64,000 nt of DNA from the NCBI GenBank assembly GCA_051942245.1, contig JAVECL010000040.1, forward strand, positions 1 to 64,000, given 5' to 3'. Position 1 is the first letter of the stretch; each line of letters starts with the position of its first letter. Below the pieces are notes generated by a model, which was not told the origin of the DNA, made no database searches, and worked only from the letters and a program-made list of their open reading frames with translations. Positions 31,823 through 64,000 of this stretch are shown here, one piece after another. The position numbers and the translations under genes were made by a program. This stretch comes from Trypethelium eluteriae. Its lineage: Eukaryota.

Positions 31823-34800
31823 CTATTGTAGCATTCCATCAAGACTCTCCCCAAGCACCCCTTCGATCTGTTGAATCCATCTATGGACCTCTTTCTCCAC
31901 TATCTCATCATCATCTTCCTGCAGCTCGCTGATGTACGGGATCATTTCCGGCAACATACCCAACCAGTCTTCTCCCAATCTTCCCGTCAACGCTTGTTCT
32001 GTTTTGACCGCTGCAAGGCGGACTGCCGCGCTTGCCGATCGTAGTTTGGGAAGGAGGTGCGAGTTGAGTGTTTTGTGGTGCTCCAAGGACGAGGAAGCCG
32101 ATGCAAAGGCGACGATTGTAGGGATGAGAACGCCGTCAGGGGAGAGCGGATCTGCCTCGGAGGTTTCGCCGCGGTCGAAAGAAGCACTGGTAAGAAGCGA
32201 AAGAAGTGGCTCGCAAATGGGATCACAGTGAGAGGGCGATTGCCAGAACTCGCTCTCGTCGTAGTCAAAGGACTTTCGTAGAGCGCGCAGAGAACCGCTC
32301 AGGAGGATCGAAAGATCACGCTCGCCGCTCTCTTCTTGGACCCCTTGTGCTAGGATCTGCGCTGCAGGCCCGAGAATGTAATGAGAGTACTTTGTGACGA
32401 TGGTTTTGAGGGAATCGAACAAGCGTTCGCAAAAGGAGAACAAGGTGATGGAGCGTAAGATCTTGACGTCTTTTTGAGCTTGATTTTCCGAGGCCGATTC
32501 CACCAACCGGACAAAAAATGGCCGAAAGATGGTGTCGTTTATCTTGAAAACCATCGCAAGCACGCTGTCACATATTAGACTCTCTAGGTACACAATACGC
32601 TCATCTGAAAAGTCGTTGGTATCCCCCGATCTAGTCACAGAGCGAAGGTCAAAGATTTTCAGAAATAGACCAAACAAGATTGAAGAATTTTTGACTACTT
32701 GCTGATTTTGGCTTCCAGAGATAGCTGATCTCAAGATAGCAAGGAACTCTTCAATAGCTTCGGAACCTGCCTGAACTGCGTTGTGCCATGTTCTGTCGAG
32801 TGCAGAGAACAGTTCCTTCGGCCCGGACTTCTTTGGGAGCAGCTCTGTAAATTCTTGACGAGATACGGACATTCTAAATTTGTCGCTAGAAGTCATTGAT
32901 CTGAAACACAATGCGAGTGCCATATCTAGGTGCTTGCCCAACAACATGAAGGGTAGCCGATCGGTCACTGCGATGATCATCCTGAAGACGGCATCGTGAA
33001 GTTGTATGTTAGATTCGTCGGTGGATAGTGTCGATTCTAAAAATTGGAATCCCTTGGACAGAATCTGTGGAAGGAGTGGGATGAAGTCATCCTGTAATAC
33101 CTCCACCATGCCAGCCAAAGTGAGTAGTGAGATCACTTTTATGCTATCGTTGTTATCCCCGAGTGCCTGTTCGCTAGCAATGGCTTTGGCTGCACTCAGA
33201 GCTGCTTCCAAATCTTTTTTCCCGCACTTATCGAGAATATTACCAATGCAAGAAATGGCAGTTGCTTTGAACGCTACTTCAGACGACTTCTGCATCATCT
33301 CAATCAGACTTGGAAGGAATTCTATTAGTGCCAAACGAGCCTTCAGGTCTCGTTCGTCAATACCATCCAGGCGAGCTCCAAGAGCAATCAGAGCCCTACG
33401 GCAGATTTCATGAGAATGTTCTTGTAGAAGGCGCTTAGCGGATTCAATAAAGTCTGTGACTGGTGGCAAAGCAAGAGTTGCCGCTTCCATCTCACGGACC
33501 GAGGCTTGAAGAGGGCTAACGACTTTGACGATCTGCGAAAGCTCAATCGATTTACTAAGAAGTGCGTGGTACTGTGTCCGAATCTCGTCGGTGGTCGTCC
33601 TGTTAGTGCGCTTGACACCTCTGAACTTTGCTTTCAGCTGCGGTGAGCTCAAGATGATAGCTAGAACTTGTAAAATCTGCCTGAGTGATGTCGCGATCTG
33701 GTCCTCCGTCTTTTCATTCGAAGCTAGAAGGACTTGGGAAAGGGCTCCGGATGCTGGTAGCGCATCGACAGCGAGTTCGAGGCATTTTTGGCATGCCTCA
33801 ATTTGCTCGATAGCACTAAAGCTACTCAGTAACTCCTCAGCAAAAGCTTTAGCATCATCGTCGTTGGAGTATCGATCCATGAGCATCGAAATAACAGCAA
33901 AGAGTGATTGCTGGGTTCCAATAGTTTGCAATAGGTTTTGAAATAAATGCAATCGACGATGAGATGGAATATGCTCGTAGGCCGCCACGAAGCTTAACAG
34001 AAGCTCTGAAATACCAGCGATGAGGCCCTGATTCTTCCTCTGCAACGATGCTAGAAGAGGTGGTACAACTCGAGACACTGTTGTATCCACAACGTGCGCC
34101 GAGTACTCGTCAGATTGTCTCATAAGGGTAGAGCCCATGAATGTGAAGATCGGCATCACGCTGTGAAGTACTCGATCGGGAACCCACACTGCTAGGCTTG
34201 AGATGAGCAGTAAAGCGGCGTTGTGGACCTGAGGATTTGATGTCGTTCGCAAGCAATCGACCAAGAGATCGGCACGCACGGAGTGCTCCATCTCCTGAGG
34301 AAGAGTACCTTCTCCATTATCCACGATCTCCGTTATGTTGGTGATTGTAATTGTTTGCAGATAGGAAAGATCAGAGTCAGCCTGGCCCTTGTACTGCTGC
34401 AGTTCGTCGAGCACGTGGAATAGGCTCCGGAGAAGTTCGGGTTTCTTCCTGGAGCTCGAAATTCCAACTAGATCAAGGATGAAGGTAGTTCGCCGGAGTA
34501 TTCGACTCATATCCTCCTGAACAGTAATACCATTTGTTCCTCTTCCACTCCTGCTAGTACGGCGCCTTTTAGCGGCTGGATGTTGATCGACTGCGTGCCC
34601 GGGACTTTGTATGCTATCAAGAAGTAATGTCAGTATCTCCCCAGATAAAGATATAGCTCGCAAGGTGTCTGCGGCATCCACTTGAATGGATTGAATCTGT
34701 ACGTCCGATGGTGTCTCCAGAGACCAATCAAGAAGGGTGTCTGCCATGGAGAGGCGGTTGTTCGCTGAAAGACTGGGCCATATTTCCTGAATGCGATTGA

Positions 34801-37273
34801 AGGCTGCTTGCTGGAGGCCTGCTCGACCACCTGTGGAGCCTCCTTGCGCAGCTGAGCGAAGAAGATCAAGAGCTCCGTCGTCTTTGGCGAACAGGATACC
34901 AAGATAAGCACGGTCGAGGAGTTTCGATGCAAGGTGCTCACGGTCGCATATTGACTCTACTTCCTGCAATGGTAACATAATCCATTTCCGCACGTCAGGC
35001 TGCAGATGTCGACCCCTCGAGGACGATATAGATTTGCCGACTCGTCCAAGGATTTGTAACAGCCGCAATTTCACATTGTATGAGCGGACAACGCAAACAT
35101 GGCTGCATAAGAACTCTGTAAATGCAGTCCTCACCTTAGACTTGAGGTAGACCGAGTCTCCGGATTTTTCTGATTCCTGACCAGTCTGAGGTTTTCTCAA
35201 GACATGCTCGATGACATTCGATATTTGTGAAGCGTCCAGGGCGCATTCGTGGAGTTTCGCAGCAATGACCGACATGACTTTCTCTATTTCGCTCATGAAC
35301 ATCCACTCAATGCCTTCCGCGGCCTGCCCGTAAAGGGCGTTTCTGAAGCTTTCCCTTTGGCCCTTACTCTCTTCGGAAGAGCGCTGCTTCATTGACAGTC
35401 CAAGATCCAGAGCCGCTCTTCGGACCCTCGGAGACTCATCAGCAAGGGCATGCAGCAAATAGGGTATCAATGTCTGTTCGTCGAAGCTTTGGCTTTGCTG
35501 GACTAGATTTGTCATCAGCTCGAGAGCCTTGGTTCTCGAGCCAATTGGAGAAGGTCCCGACCACAGTCGAATGTAGAATGAAGAAAGCGCAGCATGCCCG
35601 CCGTGTTTCCAGATATCCAGTGTGTCAAATTGAAGCTGATAATTATCAGTAGCATTCGCAGGGAAGAACACTTGATGGAGCTGCTCGAATAAGTCTGGCA
35701 TGTCCGTGGTTAAGAAGGAAGCATTTTCCGGTATGTGCTTGGGTAGGCTTCTGACGATGTCCGCAAAAGGCGTTTTGGTATTTTCTTCCAAGACAACGTC
35801 TGAAGACGTTACTTCATCTGAGGTTCCTACTGGGACTTCCAGTCGAGACCTAATGGGAGTTCGGAGTCCTGCCTCCAATTGCTCAAGATCGATATGGAGC
35901 CTTTGAAGCACCTGTTGTGTCAAAGGCTCTAGGTGAGGAGATCCGAGTAGCGTTTCAAAGATGCGAGACAGGGCCTGGGTGAGATCGGCATGCGACATTA
36001 AATCATCTTTCGAGTTGTTTACGACTTCTGCAAAGGCTTCTATGATCCTGGTGGTCTGCGTCTCGTCGAAAATTCGGTTTGACAACAGCTGGTCACCTAG
36101 CCTGATTCCTTGTATACGATCAGAGGGTTTGGATCGCTTCAGTGCACCCAATATTAGTCCGAGGGCCAATTTATCAACTCTGTATTCTTGAGATAGCAAA
36201 CTTAAGCGGCCAGAAAGGCTCTCAAAGGTTATCAGATGTTTGACAACGGCTTTGGGAAGCTTAAAGCTTTGTCTTTCTTGAGCTATGACAGCCAAGGTGA
36301 TCAGACCAGGGTCCGACGAGTGCGTTCCCAGCCCGCCCGAGATTGTCTTCATCATACCATCCAACACTTCATCCTCAAGGTTTCCTTTGGTAGCTAAGAT
36401 TGTGCATATCATATAGCATCCAATCACTAGCTCGGGCACGTTCGAGACTGTCAGTGCATCATTGATCACGGGAAGAGTTCGCAAGAGCAAGTCTTCTTCC
36501 TGCCGTCGCTGAACTTCAGATCTTCCTGATTGAGCTTGATCAATCATGCTGTTCAAAGCCTGAGAAATGATGCTGGCCCAGAACGCTAGTAATGTGGATG
36601 AATGTTGACCAGCCTTTGCTACCCCAGTGACGTATTTATTGAAGGCAGTGAAAGTGGGTGTATTATGTCCGATAGTGTATACAATTGTGCTTCTTGGTGG
36701 GTTCACAAGTGATTTGATGTATGGATATAGGAAACGACAGGTAGGTGGAATGTTCGCTGGTAATATAGAAAGGAGGCCGAGGAAAATGTGTGACTCATGA
36801 TATGGCAGAAAAGTTAAGATCGTGATTTGCGTGTTGTACTCGTGTATTCTGGTAAAGTTATCAATAGGATATTATGTCCAATTCAAATTCCTCACGCACC
36901 TAAAGCGTCTGACGAGCCATTCAACAGCTTTATGAGCTGGCTTGAGCAAAAGTCTGCCACTGACAAGTCCGAGAAACCTCTCAAGAACAGCATCCAGCTC
37001 TTCATTCTCCTTTTCAGTCATTTGGGTGCGATCTTCCAATTTGCTCTGCCCGCTGAATAAATTCCGAGAGAAAGGAATGAAGCGAGAATCGAGCAAACAT
37101 AGCTCTTGGAAGCCTTCCTGACAAATTTGGTAGATGGTATCGAAGCTTTGGGTGACGGCATCCTTGGGATCAAATAATAGAGACTTAGAATGCGCTGCCC
37201 TCTGAGCTTTCAAGTCAAGTTGCTGCGTGCTGTTGGATGCAATTTGTGCAAGTTGTTTCTGTAAAGACGTCAT
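31823..37273 (-). CDS. UTP10: U3 snoRNA-associated HEAT-repeat protein Utp10
   Basis: MTSLQKQLAQIA start; KAVEWLVRRFRIHEYN; VLHSVMPIFTFMG; C-terminal LPEMIPYISELQEDDDE. Intron 36849-36899. Confidence 0.95.
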
Positions 37274-37580: not shown

Positions 37581-40500
37581 ATGAGCACACAGTCCAATCA
37601 AGTCGCTGCTCCTAGGTTTGGCAGCTTCAAGCCCAAAGGCAAATCCAGACAGACCGAAGCGGATCACTCGCAGGAGGCACGCGCGGAAACCTCGTCAATA
37701 CATTCAGAGCAAGAGGCCACTGAGCATGCAACACGACGCCGCAAGCATGATAATAGGAATAATAAGAAGCGTCGACACCATTATAGATATGGTGATCGCC
37801 AAGAAGTACTCTCGGAGGCCAGGAAAAAGCTACACGAACCGAATATTGTCTTAGCTACGTGGGAAGAAGAACCTTCACTCTACGTCATCGACGTGAATGG
37901 TGACTCCCAGAACATTGCCTATGCAAGGCCTAATACATATCACGTTCCAGCTTATAGACGTGAGGCTGCTGGCGGAGTGCTAGGGTATGATAGCCGTTGG
38001 AAGATAGATCGGCAGAGGAGCAAAGAGCAAGACCTGGTGGTTGTTGACTCGGAAGCTCCTGATGAATCCAAAAGGTCGGAGAACTTGCTGTCGTCCGTTG
38101 GAATCCAAGAGAATGGGCGCTGCCGGGTTATAGGTCCTATGAAAAAGAGACTGGACGAAGATGTAGCTGCCGAGTTTATAGGTCTGTATCCCGAGAGGAA
38201 GACGAACCGCAATTCTCCGCATGTAGATACGAGGCTACGAGATGATAAAGAGCTTGACTACGCGGCTCTTGATAGTACACGATCGCATCAGTATGGATCG
38301 TTCGAATCGGATCGCGAAACGCCTGATTGCTTGGACCAAGCAGGCTCAGAATATGAAGATGAGCAAGAAACATCTTTACAAAATGAGAACGCCCGCCTAT
38401 CTCGTCTTGTTAGAGATGAGCCACATAACGTTATTGCCTGGATACGGTACATCGATCATCAAGATTTTGTAATCCATCATGGTCGAGAAAATTACAGCAT
38501 GAAAATATCTGACAGGCGTGCCTCATCTCAAGTCAAGATTACAATATGTGAGAATGCGTTGAAATCCATCGGAAAAGACACACCCGGCCGAGAGACCCTT
38601 CTTTTGAAATTGGTCGATGAAGGGCTTCAGACTTGGGATGCTGGAACGACGGCACGCAGACTACAAGACATACTCAGGAAGAACCCAACTATCTTTCCGT
38701 TACGAATACGATATCTGAACTTTGTTCAGGTGGATTCGTCGACGTTTCGCTACGAGCACTGCCGTGAAGTTATGCTCGATGCCCTGAAGGCACTAAAGCC
38801 AATGGAAAATTCCGAGAGTACTGGTCAAGCTACAGCGCAAACTGTCTGGTCTCTGGCAGAGCAGCAAATGTATTTGTTCCTTCGCCTCACGAGGCTAATT
38901 TTAGAATCTGGATATCAAGAACATGCCGTGGCTCTTTGGCAAAGCACTATCGAATTTTATCTATTTCGACCCAAACCTTTAGCATATTCTATCGCTGGCA
39001 GTAACTCACAAACCGATTTGATGAAGAGCTTCGAGGAATTCTGGGACGAAGAGGTGCCACGTTTTGGAGAGCCAAATGCTCGTGGCTGGTGCATGTTTCA
39101 TGAAAGTGGTGGAGCCTCTCGAGATCCAGCTACATACCACGTGGACTCCTCTTTCAATCCTGATGGCGACTGGAAAAACTTTGCAGAAACGGAGAAGCGA
39201 CTGATGCATGCTCTAAGAGAACCAGGCAGAACATCTGAGGAAATTGGATCCAATGATCCATATCACACCATACTTTCTTCGGATATCCTTCCCTATCTCT
39301 CATTGCTTCCCTGCTCGATGGATCATGAACTCCTTGTCGATGCGCTGACTTGCTTCTGCCAGCTGCCACCAGCACCAATGTCGAAAAGGCCTACGTCACG
39401 GCAGCAGTGGTGGCTTGATCCCTTCCTCCGTAACGATCTTCTCCAACCCATCATGGAATCAGGATACAGAACTGTTGACGTGCACAGCCCACTACGACAG
39501 CACGGCCTCTCTTTTGGTCAATTCACGACGACGACCCTATTTTCACATCCAATAATGTCCCAGTTCCTATCTGTACCGATTGAGTGGATGCGCTGCGCTC
39601 TAAAAGGTCTTACCGATGCAATACCACAAAGCGATAACCTTGCTGAGTACCGGCTTGTCTTCGAGTACCAGCATGACTCAAAAAACGCGAAGCGGATAGC
39701 CAAGTCTCTTCTCAAAGTGAGGTCTTCGAGCCTGCGTCTATGGAATGCCTATGCCCTTGGCGAATATCGTTATGGGCGCGTAGAGGTTGCAGACAATGTC
39801 ATTACCACAGCTCTTCAGATGAGCAAGACGTTTTCAGAGGCATCGCGAGGAGATACGATATTACTCTTTCAGACTTGGATCTGGGCTGCACTTCATCAAC
39901 TGGATCTGGATATGGCACTCGAACGGGCTCTCCGCCTAAATGCAGGCTTCGACGGCTCTCAATCAATTGCACCAAAAATTATGGATAAGCTTAATATGAA
40001 ACAGAGCATCCTGGGAGCGCGAAACACCTTAGAGAAACATCAGCTAGTGGCTCTCTCGGCACGAGAGCATGAACGCTTTGTAGCTTTTACTGACTGTCTT
40101 GCTCTTGTAGCGTATCTGCCCGAAAAGAGTATAGCTGAAGCTATCTCTGTCTACCAGTCTACTTCAAGCCTGCTTGCGTCTTGGGATTTAGCCTCTGCGT
40201 CGGTCACTGAATTAATTCACCAAGCCGAAGCACAATTGATCGCATACCATATCTCAGGCGGGCAAAACCTGAAATACGATCATGACTACCCGTCATCTAG
40301 CTTACACGCTCCACAACGAGGCTGGATCTATAGCCCGGAACTAATCCGCCAAACACTCCGAGAGAGTCTCTCTCGGTTCCCAGATAATTGTTTCATTCTG
40401 GACGCTCATGTCCACAATGAACTCCGCTTCCCCGTTATTGACCGTGACACGGCCCTCTCCAAGTTCTCACAATTCTCAATTCGTCAAGATCTCCCTCAAG

Positions 40501-40988
40501 GCTTGGAGCGGAAAGTCATGTCAAGACCCTCTAGCGAAGAGCACGAAGCGTCAAACAATTTAGGGCTCGATGGGACAAGCGTAATACGCTGTTTTCACAG
40601 TATTTTGGCGTGCATTGCGCGTCTGCATTCTCAACCAGAGGAGCATTCTGCGACAATCTATAAAGCGCGCTCGATGTTCGAGCGCATTGTCTCGTTAGGG
40701 AGTGGACAGCACAATGCCGGGCTTTGGGCCTTATATCTTGAATTTGAAGTCTACATCGCAGGTAAAGGTGGAGACTTGGAAAGGGCGTGGACAGTCTTTC
40801 TCCAAGGCCTCAGAGCAGTTCCATGGTGCAAAGCTTTTGCAATAGTAGGTTTCGTGCATTTAGGTGAGCACCGTGCTGGCGATATTGCGGGCGTATGGGA
40901 AATGATGGTGGAAAGGGAGTTAAGGCTGCACGTTGACATGGAGCCATTTCTCGGGCGGATGCGCCAACTTAGACAAGCAAAAGGATGA
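37581..40988 (+). CDS. NRDE-2/Nrl1 family HAT-repeat protein
   Basis: 1135-aa ORF with PRFGSFKPK, WIRYIDHQ, SGYQEHAVALWQ, FEEFWDEEVPRFGE and PWCK motifs. Confidence 0.88.
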   Translation: MSTQSNQVAAPRFGSFKPKGKSRQTEADHSQEARAETSSIHSEQEATEHATRRRKHDNRNNKKRRHHYRYGDRQEVLSEARKKLHEPNIVLATWEEEPSLYVIDVNGDSQNIAYARPNTYHVPAYRREAAGGVLGYDSRWKIDRQRSKEQDLVVVDSEAPDESKRSENLLSSVGIQENGRCRVIGPMKKRLDEDVAAEFIGLYPERKTNRNSPHVDTRLRDDKELDYAALDSTRSHQYGSFESDRETPDCLDQAGSEYEDEQETSLQNENARLSRLVRDEPHNVIAWIRYIDHQDFVIHHGRENYSMKISDRRASSQVKITICENALKSIGKDTPGRETLLLKLVDEGLQTWDAGTTARRLQDILRKNPTIFPLRIRYLNFVQVDSSTFRYEHCREVMLDALKALKPMENSESTGQATAQTVWSLAEQQMYLFLRLTRLILESGYQEHAVALWQSTIEFYLFRPKPLAYSIAGSNSQTDLMKSFEEFWDEEVPRFGEPNARGWCMFHESGGASRDPATYHVDSSFNPDGDWKNFAETEKRLMHALREPGRTSEEIGSNDPYHTILSSDILPYLSLLPCSMDHELLVDALTCFCQLPPAPMSKRPTSRQQWWLDPFLRNDLLQPIMESGYRTVDVHSPLRQHGLSFGQFTTTTLFSHPIMSQFLSVPIEWMRCALKGLTDAIPQSDNLAEYRLVFEYQHDSKNAKRIAKSLLKVRSSSLRLWNAYALGEYRYGRVEVADNVITTALQMSKTFSEASRGDTILLFQTWIWAALHQLDLDMALERALRLNAGFDGSQSIAPKIMDKLNMKQSILGARNTLEKHQLVALSAREHERFVAFTDCLALVAYLPEKSIAEAISVYQSTSSLLASWDLASASVTELIHQAEAQLIAYHISGGQNLKYDHDYPSSSLHAPQRGWIYSPELIRQTLRESLSRFPDNCFILDAHVHNELRFPVIDRDTALSKFSQFSIRQDLPQGLERKVMSRPSSEEHEASNNLGLDGTSVIRCFHSILACIARLHSQPEEHSATIYKARSMFERIVSLGSGQHNAGLWALYLEFEVYIAGKGGDLERAWTVFLQGLRAVPWCKAFAIVGFVHLGEHRAGDIAGVWEMMVERELRLHVDMEPFLGRMRQLRQAKG

Positions 40989-49095: not shown

Positions 49096-51056
<1,961 letters not shown>

Positions 51057-51812: not shown

Positions 51813-52571
51813 TTAGAGATTCTTGCGAGAAAAGAAAGACCCGGAAAGAAAAAAAAAAAAAGGAATCACATCCACCAACAGAAATATATGCTCAGCGGAA
51901 GCAGAATCAAGGAACAAACAGGTAGAACGCAGTACTTCCACACCACGGCAATGCCAATGCAGCCGTAGCGGCCACCCAGCATTTTTTTGCTCCAGTATTT
52001 CTTCTGCAAAGACACAGTCCTCCACGCATGGGCCCTGCACTCTTTTCTGTCCCCGTTTTTCTTCCAGCTTCTTATCACCTTCCCAATGGGAGTTGTCATT
52101 ATCTTTAACAAGGCGAACCCCTTGGTAATAGCATCGACAACGGCAGCATTGATCTTTTGGGCGAAGATTCGGACCAATAGCTTGCCACGTGTGCCCGGCG
52201 CATTCCTGCAAGGCGGCTCCAGGAGTGTTCAAAAAACACCGTCGGAGCTGTACCCAGCGTTTTGCGTCGGCGTCAATTCGGGTTGAGCTGTTTGCATCAA
52301 TCTCGGCAATATTGTCTAAAGTAGTTCCGGCATGCTTCAATCGACCCTGGACATATCCATCCTGGACCCGTACATCTCTGTAGTCACAAAGGAATTGCAG
52401 CCATTCATGCGTGCGAGAACTCTTTTCCAGCCATTCTGGCTCTGATGACCCAAGTCTTCTCAAAGTCTCGTCGAAACACAGCGTCCGAGGCACAAGAGGC
52501 GGGACCTTTAGGTATGGTGCTTTCTCGTTGCTTCCTTCTCTTTTACCTGGATCGCTATGTTCCCATACAAT
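51813..52571 (-). CDS. Orphan open frame with CxxC...GxCxE motif; no clear ATG, possibly a pseudogene
   Basis: About 250 codons open from 52571 with protein-like composition; contains RPKDQCCRC and GPCVED. 5' end unresolved (in-frame TAG at 52572-52574). Confidence 0.4.
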   Translation of the reverse strand: MVWEHSDPGKREGSNEKAPYLKVPPLVPRTLCFDETLRRLGSSEPEWLEKSSRTHEWLQFLCDYRDVRVQDGYVQGRLKHAGTTLDNIAEIDANSSTRIDADAKRWVQLRRCFLNTPGAALQECAGHTWQAIGPNLRPKDQCCRCRCYYQGVRLVKDNDNSHWEGDKKLEEKRGQKRVQGPCVEDCVFAEEILEQKNAGWPLRLHWHCRGVEVLRSTCLFLDSASAEHIFLLVDVIPFFFFLSGSFFSRKNL

Positions 52572-53007
52572 CTACCCTCTCCATACACCTAATCCGGTTA
52601 GCGGTATTGGAGTGCTGTCTCAGCCAAATTATGCCTGGGCTATGCCCGGGTCAACTGCGCATACGCCCGCACTACTACAGCTTGTACTCTAGTCAACCGT
52701 GCTTAGTCATACTCAACTGCGCTCCATCTTCCTAATAGGGGGCTTAAATTTTATCTAAACCTGGGTAACTATGCTTAGAATCTATTAAGACCTACCTTAT
52801 GTCCCAAATTTAGGAACTATCTACATTAATAAGATTGGGCCGAACCCAATAAGCCGAACTCCGGCCAACATCTGATCTTAGGAGTTGATTGACATTAGCG
52901 GTTAGAGGTCGGCGCTGCGAGGTTTTACACTTTAAGCTTACGAAAATTTAGAAGATCTTTAGCGCAGCAAAGCTTTCAACTCATAAGCAAGTCAAGAAAA
53001 ATTATTC

Positions 53008-53015
53008 AAAAAAAA
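53008..53015 (-). terminator. Oligo-dT Pol III-type terminator after the tRNA
   Basis: Eight T residues on the minus strand immediately 3' of the acceptor stem. Confidence 0.75.
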
Positions 53016-53133
53016 GCCCGATGCGGGTAACCCGCAACCTTGGGATTAAGAGTCCCACGCTCTACCGATTGCTATTTAGAGTTAGTTTTATAACTTCAAA
53101 TACAACTATCGAGTAACTTACAGCTAACCGGGC
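53016..53133 (-). tRNA. tRNA-Lys(CTT) gene or pseudogene interrupted by a 50-nt GT-AG intron (53072-53121), with truncated T-loop
   Basis: Joined sequence GCCCGGTTAGCT|CAATCGGTAGAGCGTGGGACTCTTAATCCCAAGGTTGCGGGTTACCCGCATCGGGC folds into acceptor, D, anticodon (CTT) and T stems. Confidence 0.9.
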
Positions 53134-54256
53134 GCAATGAAGAACCGTTTTTTCATAGTAAATATATATACAAAGTTCAATCTCGCACTTGTCCTTATAC
53201 CTGTAGTTCTATCTGGGCTGTTGAGGACTATAGTCATCTCTAGAATTGAGAAGGTAAAGTCCTTGCTGACATTACTACATATACCTGATCAGGCATATAA
53301 CCCCGGCGATAAGGCTGAGCCAATGGCTGAGAGACTACCGAATCCGGATCTGAGGGCCCTATACATGATCTCAGGTTTGCAATGGTTGCCCATTTGTCGG
53401 GTCTCTTGGCAGTATATAATGGTTAAGAGGGAAGTGGTAATATCCAGTCTTATCGCCCCTTTCACTTGTCTAGGGTGAACGTCTGCGTCTACAGTAGTAC
53501 TTGCCCGCTCTCATTTCCTCTCTGCTCCAAACCCTTTGCCTCGAGCAGCGACTATATCGAGCAGAGCTCCTGATGCCGAGCACAGCCTGGTCCAGCACCT
53601 ACTCATGCGAAAACCGAATCCTGAAGCTACTGTGCGGTCCAAAAGTAGAACGAACAGCATCGACCAGGTATGGCTTAGGCCATCCAGAACCGCAAAGTTG
53701 GAAGACTTCGACTGCGCCAGCTAAATGAAGTATTGCGACGGTCTTTTCTGTGAGATGCTCAAACATACCATCGAAGCGATGAAGTTTCCCCACCTTAAAA
53801 AGAATAAAATCAGATTTGCGGATGGAGATGCTCCAGAGAAGCACTGTATATCGCAGTGGACACATCTAATCGTAACAACTGCGCTATCCCATGCTCAATG
53901 TCAGTCCAACGGCCACGAGCTTCGACCGCCATCCGTCGGCATGGTCGCAGATGGTAACGCCAAGAGACTCTGTGGAAACAAGCCAGACTGAAGGTACCAT
54001 ATGGAAATTGTGCGAAGCGATTTCGAGAGCGAGATCTCCATGCGAAAAGTCATCCGTGGATGGCTCGCTCTAAGGTGCGACATCGATCGGTAAATCCGTC
54101 AAGTCCAGAAATTGACTACGGAGGGAACGCACTCCGATGAACAACCAGTTCTTCCGTGCTTTGATTTTCTGGAGACTTGAGGTGCCTGCCTGGGCATCCA
54201 AGCCAAGGACGAGTTCCCATGCAATTCCGTATTAGCTCTGATCCTAGGTCACGCAA

Positions 54257-56610: not shown

Positions 56611-57828
56611 CTAACTGGTGAAAGTCGTGCCAATGTCACCCCAGCGAATGTTGGAGAAGACGACATGGGTCGTTGGATCCTGAGCCTGGATAGTCGCAGG
56701 GTTGCCGGCTGTACTGCTGCAAGGTCCTGCACTGCCACTGTCGAGCCAATTCATGAACTGACTGTTATCGTTCCAGATGCTGAAGACGAGGACCATACCG
56801 CGGCCAAGCGCCTCGCCCATAGTAGTGAGGCTGCCGAATTGGTTTGCACTGCTGTCGACCTCTGCGCACCACGTGGAGTTGATGGTGTCTCCGCTGGGAC
56901 CAGAGATGGCGCTAGGGACGGTCTTTCCGTTTTGCTGGTAGATGCGCTTGATCTCAGTGAGCGTGCCAGTGGTGGTGCCGTCGTTGGTGATGAACTGCGT
57001 GATGATGGTGAAGGGCTTTGAGGTGTCGAGGGTGCCACCTTGTGCCCAGTAGTTCTTGTACCCGAGACCATAAGCGTTGAAGCCGCAGCCACCTTTGTCG
57101 CAGTTGGAGGAGTCGGCTGCGCAAGGGTGGGGGGTAAAAGCGCTGGCGACGGAGTTGGACTCTAGGACGTCCATTTCATTGCAGCAGTAAGCTGCACCGT
57201 TGGTGTTGAGTGTGCCATTCTTGAAGGTTTCCACGGGGCACTGGGCATCGCAGTAGCCCGCGCCGTAATTAGCGGCGCCGGTGTTATATTGGTTGCGGCC
57301 TCCTGTATGATCCATCTCTGAGAGATACAGCGCTCCGTTCTCCCCGCACGGTAGGGTAGACAGATCGACGTCAAATCTGAGCTCCTGGCCAAGGAGATTC
57401 AGACTGGCGTAGTCACCATCTGAGTCCAGGAGATAGATACGAGGAGAGGATGAAGTGGTGGTGCCATCATTTTGTACGAATTGGCTCATCGTCAACGTAT
57501 CTCCTGAGGTCGTTACACCCATTGCCGTATAGTTGGCACCCTCGATGAAGCAGTTCTTGGCACAGGTGGCCTCGTCAGGACATAAGGTCGAGTTGATTGC
57601 TCCACTACTCGTAGTGCAAGAGGTATAGTCAGCAGTGTGGATCCAGCGATAAGCCCAGTCAAGGACCACTGAAGTCTGTTGCTGGACACAGCCGCCTGCT
57701 TTGGTACATTTCGAGGTCTGCAGCTGGGGGTGAACTTCAGGAGTGGAAGTGCCAGGTTGCTGCGCACAGGCAAGCTGGAGAAAAGCCAAAGCAGCAGCAG
57801 CGCGAGAAATGTGGTGTCTTGGTGCCAT
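56611..57828 (-). CDS. GH7 endoglucanase (EG I/Cel7B-like), no CBM1
   Basis: Signal peptide; [36 protein letters not shown], catalytic [17 protein letters not shown]. Confidence 0.96.
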
Positions 57829-60121
57829 GTTTGATGTGAAGTTCGAAAAGCTTGGAGATCCTCTTGAAGAGAGGTTCTCCAGGACATATTTATCGTGACA
57901 CCAGGTGTCTATGAAAACAAACTAAAATCGACTAACCGTTCCCTGGATAATAGCAGATGGTCTCGTGCATCTTTCTTGGCCGTTCAATAGATCTAGTTAA
58001 TATCAAGGAAGAGCATGCCGCTGCAGGGAAATCACAGAAGAGAATGGCCTCGGTCTCCATTGGACGGATATTCTGACGTTTGGATGTTTGAACGTTCTGC
58101 CAAAAGCCGACAGGAATGAAGCGGGCGCTTGAGTGCACTAGATAGATGAAGATGTAATTTAATTCTTCTCACAGCGGGGTTTTCTGGGTTTAGTGGCTGG
58201 CTAATGCTTGATTGAGAAAGATGTTTAGTGCACGTACTATACGGAGAAGCACTCTGCGACGATGATTGGACACAGAGGAGCAGAAGACAGGGTACGACGG
58301 CAACGAAAATCCGGAGTAATCTAGGCAGGGAGACGAAAGGGTCTGGAAAAGCTAAGAGACCCTGCATCATGATATAGAAACGTCGCATCTCTCGGGAGGA
58401 GGTTGCCGAACGAAACTTGTAGGGGGCCAGTGGAGCCAGCGGAGCCAGTAGGGTCTTCCACATTTACCCTGAGCCGTCATCTCCATCATCTCCATAATCA
58501 TTTGGTGCCAGCATCCTAATGAGACCTTCCTGAATGAGTCATTGAAGATCTAGATATTTGCCCTGCATCACAATTTATTGAGGCTGAAAAGAATCCCCGG
58601 TTTTTGAGAAAATTGGCACATGGGCAAAACACCCTTCAAGCTACTAGAGTACACGCACCTGGCCTCGTGATGCGTCTCTGGGGTATCGCTCCAGCTGGCA
58701 CCTTCCCTCTTGTTGCCTTGTCTTTACCAGCTAAAAAGAATACCTGTCAACGAATTTCGAGCCTTCACTTACTCAAGGCACCGCGAACCCTGAATCGTCC
58801 ATCGGTTGGCCAAATTTACACTCAGTCTTGCATGAATTTCTCAATTCTCTATTAACAGCCTCTCTAATTTAATGAATCAGGGAATATGAGCTTTCACCAT
58901 AAGTGTGAATCTTCTGTCGATGCTTACTCAAACGGTCCAGGGATCGGAAACATAAAGTTGCTGCACAGAATGATGAATGCATAAAGCTGGATATGGAGTG
59001 AATAGCATAATTATCTGCATAATACCCATATCTGGCTAGTGCGGCTCAATACATGCTAGATCAGGTTGAATGATAGCCAAGTTGGGGCTAATCTGCACCC
59101 TCTCTATCCCTGCTAGGTCTCTTACTCCTTCGCAAGTCCCGTGACAAGAGGATTACAGACTAAGCTCAATTAAGCCAATGTTGGACCATGTTGGCCCAGT
59201 TGAGGAACCCCCCAAGCGCGGTAAGGTAAGTTTCCGAACCCTACCCGAACCTAACTACTGTACTTGTTCTTGCGCAAAGTTCTCAACCCTCTATTGAGGG
59301 ACTCTATACACGTGCTGTGATCAGATCCAAAGATTCTAAGGGGAGATCGCGAATTAAGGACACACGTGTCAAAGGATGGAGTAAAGAACAAGTCAAGCCT
59401 TCATTTGCTTGAGCATCAGCAACAACGCGCCGGATGCGTCCGTAAAACAGAACCACGGGCATTAGCTTGACTAATGAGAGATGAGAGTGTGCTCCAGCTC
59501 TGGGCCTCGAGTACCAGGACTGCTGCTGTATGAGGACCTTGAGGGCCCATACTAGCGTGTCGAAAGCGTGAGTACTCTACCAGCCTATCGCACTCAGACC
59601 GCGACCGTAAGAGAAAAGATCGAAGAAAAGGCTTCGCTTCACTGGCCTCAGTAACTCAAAGGGATAGGCTCTGCAATTTCTCTGGGGATCAAGCTTCGTA
59701 GGAAATGATGAGTTCCCTACCATGCTTCGAAATTTGTGGTGAGCACCTCAACGAAAGGCTCAGACTCTGACTTCCATACAGTCAGCCTACACGCCAAACT
59801 CCTCATTCTTGCTCTATCTCATGTCTCCTTCAATCACGACAGTCCTATCAATCTTGTTCCCATGGTATCGGCGTTCTATATGGAGACTTGTCGCTAAAGT
59901 TCCAAGTCTCGACTATCCAGACGTGCAATCTACCCATCCTATGGGAAAGTGTCAGACAATATGCAAGACCCACACCACACCATTTGGCTCAACAAAATAA
60001 TGCATTGGCTACATATAAATTCAGGACACCGCAGTCTCCAAGCTTCCTTATCGAACCCTCTCACAAGAACCGAAGCCTTCGAACAAAGTCCTAGCCCTCC
60101 TCTACAAGAACTAGAACGAAA

Positions 60122-61195: not shown

Positions 61196-62743
61196 CTACT
61201 GCTCTGACTTGACGTACTCAGCATAGTCGTTTCCCGGGCTTACAAAACCGAAGATTTCGTCCATCTGATCCATACGGAGGCCTTTGGTTTCGGGAAGAAA
61301 GAAGAATGCATAGATCGACGCACAGACGAGACAACTTGCGAAGAAGATGTAAACGCCATATCCGGCCATGCTTGTAAACATGTACGGTAGCGACTTGGTG
61401 ACAACATATGTCCACAACCAGACGCACATCGAAGCCCATGGACCAGAGATGGACCGCAGTGAGGAAGGAAAGATTTCTGCAGAGATAATCCAAGGCATTC
61501 CATTGGCACCTGCTGTCCAGATGGCTCCAAATATCATGATCGCAGCTGTAGCAGCCTTACCACCAGCAACCGTCGATGAAGACTGGGCAGCTCCAATCTT
61601 CGGCTTAGCCACGGCGATGTAAGCCGCGAGATAGTACTGACAGAGAGCGCAAGCGAAGCATGAAATGATCCAAGGCCACTTCCTACCGAGCCTGTCCAGG
61701 AACCATGTGAAGAAAATCACAGCGGCGACAGCCTTAATAATACCGTAAATCCCCGTCCATAGAGTTACATCCGTAAGTCCGATCGAGGTAAAGATAGTAG
61801 GCGAGTAGTAATTTATTGCCGAACTGCCCGACCAGGCTTGCCACACGAACAGCATGAACACAAGTCCAAAACGGTTCCGTATGCCCCTCATCAATGCTTC
61901 TTTGCCAGCACCTCGAAGGTAAGCCGTAAAGTCAGCACGGCCACCGGTCGAGAGAGCACGCTCATGTTCGATTTGACCCTTGATGTACGCGACGTCTTCG
62001 GCAACGTAATCGTGGTCGGCTGGGAGATTACGCAAGAAACTGAATACTTCCACAGCTTGTTCTTCCCTCCCCCGTTTCACCAGCCAGGTAGGGGATTCTT
62101 TCAGTAGGGGAACGAAAATAGCCATGAGGCCAGTCGGGATCATCTGAACGGCCATGGGAATCCTCCAACTCATCGATTTAGTTGGATCGATGTGATGAAC
62201 GATACCATAGTTTATCCAGAATCCGACCACTGAGCCAATCTGGTAGGACGATTCTATAAAGCCGATCAGACGGCCTCGTATTGCAGGAGGCGATATTTCA
62301 GCGATATAGATTGGAGTAACGGCGGCCAATCCACCAACACCAAGTCCCGAGAGCAGTCGGCCAGCATAGATAAGACCAAGTTGATTCTGAGCAACAGTGC
62401 AAAGAATGGCGCCGAGAATGAAAATGGCGTCTGAAATAATGACTGTGCTCTTCCGGCCGAGAAGTTCTAGGGAAAAGGACACGAAAAGGGCACCAAAAAA
62501 GCCGCCAGCTGAGTATATGCTTGTCACATTACTTGAAACGTTATTCTGCTCGGACTTGGACATATGATTGAGTCCAAAGTCGCGCACAAAGCTGGGCTGT
62601 GTGATCGTGGTACCAATAAAAGCAGTGTCGTAGCCGTACGCGAATGTACCGAGAGCGAGGATTAGCGCGAATGCATATACCTTCCAGTTGTATATTTCTT
62701 TTGGTGTCGGGCGATCCTCTTTTGCGCGGGTAAAGCTAGTCAT
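61196..62743 (-). CDS. MFS sugar-porter family, quinate permease-like transporter
   Basis: N-terminal EDRPTPKEIYNW; GYDTAFIG, YIAEISPPAIRGRL, INYYSP, FFLPETKG. Confidence 0.92.
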   Translation of the reverse strand: MTSFTRAKEDRPTPKEIYNWKVYAFALILALGTFAYGYDTAFIGTTITQPSFVRDFGLNHMSKSEQNNVSSNVTSIYSAGGFFGALFVSFSLELLGRKSTVIISDAIFILGAILCTVAQNQLGLIYAGRLLSGLGVGGLAAVTPIYIAEISPPAIRGRLIGFIESSYQIGSVVGFWINYGIVHHIDPTKSMSWRIPMAVQMIPTGLMAIFVPLLKESPTWLVKRGREEQAVEVFSFLRNLPADHDYVAEDVAYIKGQIEHERALSTGGRADFTAYLRGAGKEALMRGIRNRFGLVFMLFVWQAWSGSSAINYYSPTIFTSIGLTDVTLWTGIYGIIKAVAAVIFFTWFLDRLGRKWPWIISCFACALCQYYLAAYIAVAKPKIGAAQSSSTVAGGKAATAAIMIFGAIWTAGANGMPWIISAEIFPSSLRSISGPWASMCVWLWTYVVTKSLPYMFTSMAGYGVYIFFASCLVCASIYAFFFLPETKGLRMDQMDEIFGFVSPGNDYAEYVKSEQ

Positions 62744-64000
62744 CGTGATGGAGTTTTCGTTGAACGGCCTCGTATTGGAACTCCTCAAGCAAATGAAAGA
62801 TTAAGACAGAGCGCGGGAGCAAAGGGCTTATCCACCCTTGTTTTCATACCTTCAGAATACCAAACCACGCTATCTATCTTCGCACGGGATTCTTTCCCGA
62901 GACTTGCTCGAGTCAACCAACTTACTGCGTCCATTTTCTTGCGATGTAGACCCAATCAGAAGGTTTCTCCAAGGACCTTCAGCAGATCACACCTACACGA
63001 ATCAGCTCTAGCCAAGCTAAAGTCTTACCTTGCGGGGGATCAATAGAATTCCGTCCGCGATCTCTGGATGGCGTCCAGTATCATACAAGATTGTTAGCTC
63101 ACGACCACGAAGGATGCCGTAGACACCGGAGGGAGGAGGGCGATGCATGATGGCACGAGCCAGGATCATCTACTAGTGCGGCTACGGCCTCGCCCACCGG
63201 ATTCCGAGCTTGGCACGTTGGCTAGACTTCAGCAGACAAATTTTCAGAGCTGAATTGGACCTCGCTTTGTTCCATGAATTCTCGCAGCTGTCAACATGGG
63301 AGATGGCAATGCCGCGACCCGTACCCGGCTACTGTACTTCCTAAATCGTGACAATCTTTCACGTATGTTCTCTGCAGTCGCAACAGAATTAATCGCCTTT
63401 GGCAGCTAGATCTTCTCTGTTCCCAAGAGGCGAGCGTTTCCCGCGGATTCTCCGGACGATCGCCCACTCATGGTCTCTTTGGAACGTAAGCATGGAAGCA
63501 GAGCGAAGAGGAAAGAGAAAGGATAGCCAGCGAAAAACTAGACACATGGGAGGATATACGGAGTACAAAGGATATGAAGCGACAAAGAGCAAAGACTTTC
63601 AATAACAGACGAGGGTAAGAAGCAAGTATGGAACATGGCAAGGGGGCCTTCTCGCAATGACCAAGTCGGATCGGTGGTACAATCGATTCGGCAGAGCGAT
63701 TTATATATTTGATTCCCAGGCGAATCAAGTGACTCGTGCGACATCGTAACGTCCGCAGTATGAACCCGTATCTCCTATTGATACTGATCCTTGAACATGT
63801 GCATTGTTGGGCTCAGTATATTGTCACCTGCCCTTTTTTGGATATTATGTGGAATAGGAAGACTTCAATGACCACTTCGAGAGCCTGTAAAAGTCCCACA
63901 TACTACATTCGAAAGCGAGAAGGTGTGGATGTGGGTGTCGAAACCTTCAAAGACTTTCAGAGTACCGTGGTACTGTGATCGTGCAGGCGTAAACCAAGTG

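Follow-up and report, generated by a model that had tools for sequence, protein, structure and literature searches.

The closest described systems are spliceosomal introns in structural RNA genes of fungi. Schizosaccharomyces pombe and other fungi carry an mRNA-type intron in their U6 snRNA gene (Tani and Ohshima 1989, 1991; PMC5855946), and reverse splicing is, in the accessible part of the last of these sources, the favoured idea for the origin of the U6 introns. Spliceosomal introns also occur in fungal U1, U2 and U5 snRNA genes and in rDNA (Takahashi et al. 1993, 1996; Bhattacharya et al. 2000; PMC5855946), and U3 snoRNA is named as a further host (PMC5832005), as far as the available sections of these papers extend. 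In the literature searched, in which subscription journals are thinly covered, no account was found of a tRNA gene with a spliceosomal intron. Textbooks and recent reviews handle spliceosomal introns and tRNA introns as separate systems. To illustrate, a paper of 2025 terms the intron types of eukaryotes 'completely unrelated' in its introduction (PMC12530127), and the accessible text of a 2014 review on tRNA introns contains no word beginning 'spliceosom' (PMC4090602). Here we describe a tRNA-Lys(CTT) gene that carries a spliceosomal-type insert in its D-stem, together with related copies from the same genome and from environmental DNA.

Layout of an interrupted tRNA-Lys(CTT) gene

The window, by which we mean the whole 64,000-nt stretch of DNA analysed, carries on its minus strand a tRNA-Lys(CTT) gene in two parts. 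Exon 1, GCCCGGTTAGCT (12 nt, 53133..53122), comprises tRNA positions 1-12, namely the acceptor 5' strand, U8, A9 and the first three bases of the D-stem. Exon 2 (56 nt, 53071..53016) comprises positions 13-72, with the remainder of the D-arm, the anticodon arm including the anticodon CTT (53050-53048), the variable loop, the T-arm and the acceptor 3' strand. Between the two lies the spliceosomal-type insert of 50 nt (53121..53072), which is 74% A+T with a longest T run of 3. It opens with the 5' splice site GTAAGT (53121-53116), contains the branch-site motif ACTAAC (53086-53081), whose branch A lies 10 nt short of the insert end, and closes with the 3' splice site TAG (53074-53072). A T8 run of Pol III terminator type (53015-53008) abuts the acceptor stem, and a TATA-like run, TATATAT (53170-53164), begins 37 nt and ends 31 nt before the tRNA 5' end, all features being on the minus strand. 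The first-pass annotation had claimed a tRNA-Lys(CTT) split after nucleotide 12 by a 50-nt GT-AG insert, with a consensus 5' splice site, an ACTAAC about 10 nt from the end and a TAG acceptor, and both the layout and the signals were located as it had described them.

The insert sits between tRNA positions 12 and 13 and divides the A box; the anticodon loop, CTCTTAA, is intact, so the interruption is not at 37/38. Because the bases on both sides of either boundary differ, the junction is unique, and GT...AG removal alone joins TAGCT to CAATCGG. Exact GT-AG excision rebuilds the GCTC/GAGC D-stem and is the sole cut that restores a canonical D-arm, as had been asserted from the first inspection. 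The chance of finding GTRNGT, CTRAY and AG together in a random 50-mer of local composition is 1.2e-5 (2,000,000 trials). A loose regular-expression tally of intron-like strings across the window, 19 against 21.05 in shuffles, has no discriminating power. Such strings are common in the window, and it is the placement at a fixed site that counts.

In its gene content the window looks like a filamentous ascomycete, with GH1 and GH7 glycosidases, UTP10, NRDE-2, Sec63, a sugar transporter and others. Seven ORF-joining introns in the window measure 51-119 nt (median 58), and 2 of the 7 end in AAG; 5' splice-site and branch motifs formed part of the intron filter, so that only the sizes serve as an independent yardstick. 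The likeness of the insert to mRNA introns of the window, for which the 51-nt UTP10 intron had been the original example, was borne out: that intron was verified at 36899..36849 (GTGCGT...CAG), in a gene with U3snoRNP10 and BP28CT domains, the GH1 gene likewise has a 51-nt intron, and the 50 nt of the insert were accepted as intron-sized beside these two and the 51-119 nt set. Neither the insert of the window nor that of the environmental gene L001, described below, contains a T4 run, although such a run is present in only 2 of the 7 reference introns, so that its absence is too weak to serve as evidence for Pol III.

The stretch around the tRNA locus is gene-poor: no coding gene overlaps it, and the ORFs flanking it gave no Pfam match. 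A dispersed short repeat lies at 52551-52656, about 360 nt downstream of the locus, and six other contigs of sequencing run X1 match it over 34-91 nt at approximately 80-92% likeness. Farther out, a GH1 beta-glucosidase-like gene (49380-51056, plus strand), a GH7 cellobiohydrolase-like gene (56611-57921, minus strand) and an MFS sugar transporter gene (61196-62800, minus strand) lie within 13 kb and may form a cellulose-utilisation neighbourhood. A gene for an NRDE-2 family protein (37581-40988, plus strand; Pfam E = 4.6e-83) adjoins UTP10. A weak match to the snR39 C/D-box snoRNA family at 32514-32608 on the minus strand (25.6 bits against a gathering score of 40, E = 3.1) falls inside the long UTP10 ORF and is probably due to chance.

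As a tRNA, the window copy has one conspicuous defect. Its T-arm reads GCGGG-TTA-CCCGC, with a loop of 3 nt (TTA, 53028..53030 on the minus strand) in place of the 7 nt, TTCGACC, found in the paralog and in L001, and the B box is gone. The first-pass annotation mentioned a 'TTA loop' only in passing; the loop is indeed TTA, but the gravity of a 3-nt loop and of the lost B box was underweighted. The short T-loop is not an assembly slip, because the independent Logan assembly of run X1, possibly the window's own source, reproduces it with 0 differences over 1501 nt at depth 428. ARAGORN reports no tRNA anywhere in the window, and it calls neither the joined nor the unjoined locus at any of four settings, including -i and lowered thresholds. 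The Rfam tRNA model (RF00005) scores the unjoined locus at 22.4 bits, against a gathering score of 29, and at the gathering threshold Rfam finds no match in the window. Judged as a functional tRNA gene, the window copy lacks a 7-nt T-loop, an above-threshold score (ARAGORN on the joined sequence, Rfam on the unjoined) and the pair of A box and B box. The joined 68-mer nevertheless yields a cloverleaf fold (-29.0 kcal/mol) that includes a triloop, and, the TTA loop aside, all exon bases, the splice signals and the terminator are intact.

Related copies in the same genome and in environmental DNA

The sequencing runs listed for the locus, none of them RNA, comprise X1, a DNA data set whose contigs span it in full, and four runs with a small share. 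X1 and three of these four were aligned to positions 52400-53900 at 80% likeness. Eight pieces were recovered from X1, comprising the locus itself, six copies of the unrelated repeat at 52551-52656, and a paralog, X1 record 8. The last is a 7810-nt contig representing a separate locus, with a depth of 456 against 428, as expected for a single-copy-like region. Its alignment covers 53029-53138 and so runs from exon 2 across the insert and exon 1 into 5 nt of flank; 17 letters differ and there are 5 gaps. Past 53029 the contig has a T-loop of the normal 7 nt, a T-stem and acceptor strand like those of the window copy, and a T run, while its upstream loose end carries TATATAAA approximately 31-24 nt before the gene. 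Judged by the same standard, this paralog has, in the part of its sequence seen, the 7-nt T-loop and an exon 2 identical to that of the window up to the T-loop. No uninterrupted Lys(CTT) gene occurs among the X1 pieces, which stem from filtered contigs in which repeats are collapsed.

The paralog and the window copy have diverged unevenly. Over 53029-53104, for which the differences are fully listed, there are changes at 0 of 43 positions in exon 2 and at 10 of 33 in the insert, the latter with three additional 1-nt insertions (Fisher p = 9.7e-5). The listed differences extend to 53104 and account for at least 10 of the 17 in X1 record 8 and at least 6 of the 12 in X4 record 22, a root-metagenome copy. 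TAG and ACTAAC are untouched in X1 record 8, where one change makes the branch site TACTAAC. GTAAGT and exon 1 also appear conserved in both X1 record 8 and X4 record 22, judging from alignments that reach 53138 and 53134, respectively. Because the exons are identical on both sides of a diverged insert, and conversion would have homogenised the insert too, the pattern argues for selection on each copy rather than for gene conversion.

An unbiased scan of JGI metagenome contigs with a 34-nt exon-2 pattern returned a single match, contig L001, which is the only complete independent gene recovered; the same pattern gave 0 matches against viral contigs. In L001, exon 1 is GCCCTGATAGCT. An insert of 47 nt (GTGAGT...ACTAAC...AAG) follows, again between positions 12 and 13, and leads into an exon 2 of 60 nt whose T-loop has 7 nt; a long T run comes next. 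ARAGORN identifies it as tRNA-Lys(ctt) with a perfect cloverleaf once joined and does not call it when unjoined, even with -i. The expectation that a tRNA finder would separate joined from unjoined sequence was therefore borne out for L001, which is called only when joined, but not for the window copy, which goes uncalled both ways. Relative to the window copy, the pairs 5-68, 7-66 and 50-64 of L001 are doubly compensated, 6-67 changes from G-U to G-C, and 0 pairs are broken. The two inserts agree in 32 of 51 columns, hardly above the 27.2 +/- 2.2 of shuffles (maximum 32 in 300), and share the 5' end, AAACTAAC and AG. The TAGC duplication seen at the window insert is absent from L001. The flanks of L001 share nothing with the window, and there is no synteny. 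TATA-like runs, read by eye, lie about 24-37 nt upstream in both X1 record 8 and L001.

GTRAGTTA at the insert 5' end (53121-53116 plus the next two bases in the window; 474-481 in L001) and AAACTAAC at the branch site, common to both inserts, slightly exceed the minimal splice consensus and may reflect an extended splice consensus of the lineage.

Several shorter fragments add to this picture. X4 record 22 (1588 nt) aligns over 53044-53134, through the insert, with a branch motif ATTAAC, and the alignment of a second root-metagenome piece, X4 record 23, reaches 53097 inside the insert. Exact matches to exon 2, each immediately preceded by AG, come from X2 record 9 and X4 record 19, the former also with a TACTAAT some 15 nt upstream. 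A further six of the pieces displayed end exactly at 53071, five of them with 2-7 mismatches. At least some of the six appear to continue as ordinary uninterrupted tRNA genes, with loose ends starting AGCTA, and the five mismatched pieces are probably other tRNAs or come from other organisms. Every copy visible far enough upstream is interrupted at 12/13 (4 of 4: the window copy, X1 record 8, X4 record 22 and L001). Among the inserts, GTRAGT at base 1 takes the form GTAAGT in the window and GTGAGT in L001, and CTRAY near the 3' end is ACTAAC in the window, X1 record 8 and L001, with ATTAAC in X4 record 22. The terminal AG, usually expected as YAG, reads TAG in three copies (those of the window, X1 record 8 and X4 record 22) and AAG in L001. 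The first-pass annotation had named a lack of conserved splice signals in orthologs or paralogs as evidence against an intron; what was found is TAG and ACTAAC kept in X1 record 8 and the full set GTGAGT...ACTAAC...AAG in L001.

One fragment from a soil metagenome, X3 record 11 (235 nt, depth 2.7), matches exon 2 at 53020-53071 with 0 differences, the TTA loop included, and diverges from the window copy in the acceptor 3' strand and upstream. It is either a short-loop variant at another locus or in another organism, or a chimeric contig of low depth, and its TTA loop is not easily squared with a private, recent lesion in the window copy. A search of genome contigs with a 19-nt TTA-loop pattern returned one match, in an Acetobacter contig; it is a hairpin outside any tRNA setting and was rejected as a chance occurrence.

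The preferred reading and its alternatives

We consider it fairly probable that the insert is a genuine U2-type GT-AG spliceosomal-type intron at 12/13, inherited within the tRNA-Lys(CTT) family of a filamentous-ascomycete lineage, and that the window copy is a young pseudogene; the intron part of this statement, taken alone, commands higher confidence than the whole. The original interpretation of a spliceosomal-type intron thus holds in so far as the same 12/13 site, the kept signals, the diverged interior and the intact exons recur in the paralog and in environmental genes, and it needs amending in that the window copy itself is most likely a disabled duplicate. Weighing against the reading are the AAG rather than YAG end of L001, the ATTAAC rather than ACTAAC of X4 record 22, and the recovery of only one complete independent gene.

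We infer both spliceosomal removal of the insert and Pol III transcription of a gene whose A box is split. Transcription by Pol III is suggested by a TATA-like run ahead of the gene, a T-run terminator immediately behind it and an insert free of T4 runs, and it would be driven by the B box in the intact copies together with a TATA-assisted promoter. The spliceosome would then recognise GTRAGT, ACTAAC and the terminal AG, much as with the U6 snRNA of fission yeast, which is a Pol III transcript and is spliced (PMC5855946). Excision of the 47-50-nt intron would rebuild the D-stem and the A-box sequence, and ordinary tRNA end processing would follow. The window copy would later have lost four T-loop bases and the B box, a loss that looks recent and disabling, with the intact paralog supplying the tRNA. 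Because of its 3-nt T-loop and missing B box, the window copy is most likely a young pseudogene, a recently disabled duplicate whose intact paralog elsewhere in the genome provides the tRNA, and, unaccepted as a tRNA even when joined, the locus may never be expressed. Since its exons and signals were kept while about one-third of the insert changed, it nevertheless appears once to have been a working, spliced gene, and for most of its history. A paralog that keeps exons and splice signals while its intron drifts is itself evidence that the interrupted gene once functioned.

Two alternatives differ from this reading over which copies are functional. It is unlikely, in our estimation, that the window copy is alive, a conserved tRNA-like gene whose T-loop has 3 nt and whose transcript is spliced as in the paralog but serves some purpose other than standard decoding. 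Apart from the loop, its exon bases, splice signals and terminator are intact, the joined RNA folds as a cloverleaf, and X3 record 11, which combines an identical TTA-loop exon with another acceptor 3' strand and upstream sequence, favours a live copy. That contig, however, at 235 nt and depth 2.7, may be chimeric or derive from the same species, the genome-contig scan gave no second TTA-loop example save the bacterial chance hairpin, and the copy has lost its B box. A loop of 3 nt is unable to make the elbow between T-loop and D-loop that cytosolic tRNAs need in processing and translation. At the other extreme, all interrupted Lys(CTT) copies might be pseudogenes, their splice signals coincidental or relics, with uninterrupted genes supplying the tRNA. 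The defective window copy is what such a view would expect, yet it accords badly with exons that are identical between paralogs while the insert diverged, with compensatory stem changes in L001 that break no pair and leave a perfect cloverleaf once joined, with terminators directly after each gene, and with signals that recur in at least three independent insert sequences at a chance of about 1e-5 each; we regard it as quite improbable.

Other alternatives concern the nature of the insert or of the transcript. The TATA-like run upstream, and the fact that the spliceosome normally acts on Pol II transcripts, could be taken to make the locus part of a Pol II transcript, be it a non-coding RNA or a UTR, to which the intron belongs and in which the tRNA-like sequence is a passenger. 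This is very unlikely given that no coding gene overlaps the locus, that the flanking ORFs are without Pfam match, that the exon borders coincide exactly with the tRNA ends, and that a T run comes immediately afterwards in each of three copies (window, paralog and L001) whose flanks are otherwise unrelated. Removal by the tRNA splicing endonuclease and a ligase, the insert being a non-canonical ectopic intron of the kind found in archaea and red algae, has a precedent in the ectopic tRNA introns, D-arm included, that the accessible text of two sources describes for Cyanidioschyzon merolae and nucleomorphs (PMC3728597; PMC4090602). Those introns depend on bulge-helix-bulge (BHB) motifs, whereas neither the window copy nor L001 has such a motif (two 3-nt bulges that hold the cut sites, with a 4-bp helix between them), and the minimum free energy folds show none. 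The best approach to BHB geometry forms 3 of the 4 central pairs and would put the cuts in the wrong places; it is equalled by 623 of 1000 shuffled inserts for the window and by 640 of 1000 for L001. The elements kept from copy to copy, GTRAGT, ACTAAC and AG, are spliceosome signals, and the fungal endonuclease, according to the available part of one review, measures from the tRNA body to 37/38 (PMC4090602), which makes removal by this enzyme highly unlikely. Lastly, TAGC is found where exon 1 ends and recurs across the insert end, which could indicate the insertion of a mobile element or other DNA with target duplication. As the first-pass annotation had argued, removal on that basis fails, leaving the D-stem two bases short (UAGC--AAU in the Rfam alignment), and the duplication is missing in L001. 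Nor is the insert a fragment of a dispersed repeat, an origin that had been raised at the outset, as evidenced by the lack of any further copy in the window and by the paralogous tRNA gene being its only other match in X1. We therefore hold an insertion of this kind to be exceedingly improbable.

Returning to the reading of an inherited spliceosomal-type intron, its consequences depend on whether uninterrupted genes also contribute to the tRNA pool. That all 4 of the 4 judgeable copies are interrupted at 12/13 is incomplete evidence for a supply from interrupted genes, and we regard it as an evenly balanced proposition that the AAG-reading lysine tRNA of this lineage is made only from genes with an mRNA-type intron. 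If true, an essential Pol III transcript would need the spliceosome to mature, linking translation capacity to pre-mRNA splicing. Standard tRNA finders would systematically under-count the tRNA genes of filamentous fungi, and 'missing' tRNA genes in fungal annotations would find an explanation. More generally, an mRNA-type intron kept by selection in a tRNA family would mean that the spliceosome can act on pre-tRNAs. It would add tRNA to U6, U1, U2, U5, U3 and rRNA as intron hosts, and would provide a natural setting in which to examine whether introns are gained by reverse splicing into abundant RNAs.

Comparison with known introns of tRNA and other non-coding RNA genes

The canonical eukaryal tRNA intron resembles the present insert in being an intervening sequence in a nuclear tRNA gene. 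It is located at 37/38 and, in the accessible portion of the 2014 review, is described as having no conserved splice-site sequences (PMC4090602), whereas the insert described here lies at 12/13 and has such sequences. The tRNA introns of Cyanidioschyzon merolae and of nucleomorphs come closer in position, since the available text of the sources places them outside 37/38, the D-arm included, and has them invisible to standard finders (PMC3728597; PMC4090602). According to the same partial texts they are short, of BHB type and cut by the endonuclease, whereas the present insert is without a BHB and has GTAAGT, ACTAAC and TAG.

The introns of fungal snRNA, rDNA and U3 genes are, like the candidate intron, mRNA-type introns in structural RNA genes, and are often missed by standard RNA gene finders, as the accessible parts of the literature have it; the lists of hosts in those parts include no tRNA gene. 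Of all these systems, U6 of S. pombe offers the nearest parallel, being, in the sections of the source available, a spliceosomal GT-AG intron in a small Pol III-transcribed fungal non-coding RNA gene that cuts a conserved structured part. The two differ in that the host here is a tRNA, so that closeness to the spliceosome active site cannot explain how the intron entered. They also differ in their relation to the internal promoter: the S. pombe U6 intron carries a B-box match, reportedly described by Frendewey and colleagues in 1990, whereas the present insert, whose splicing is predicted from its sequence, splits an A box.
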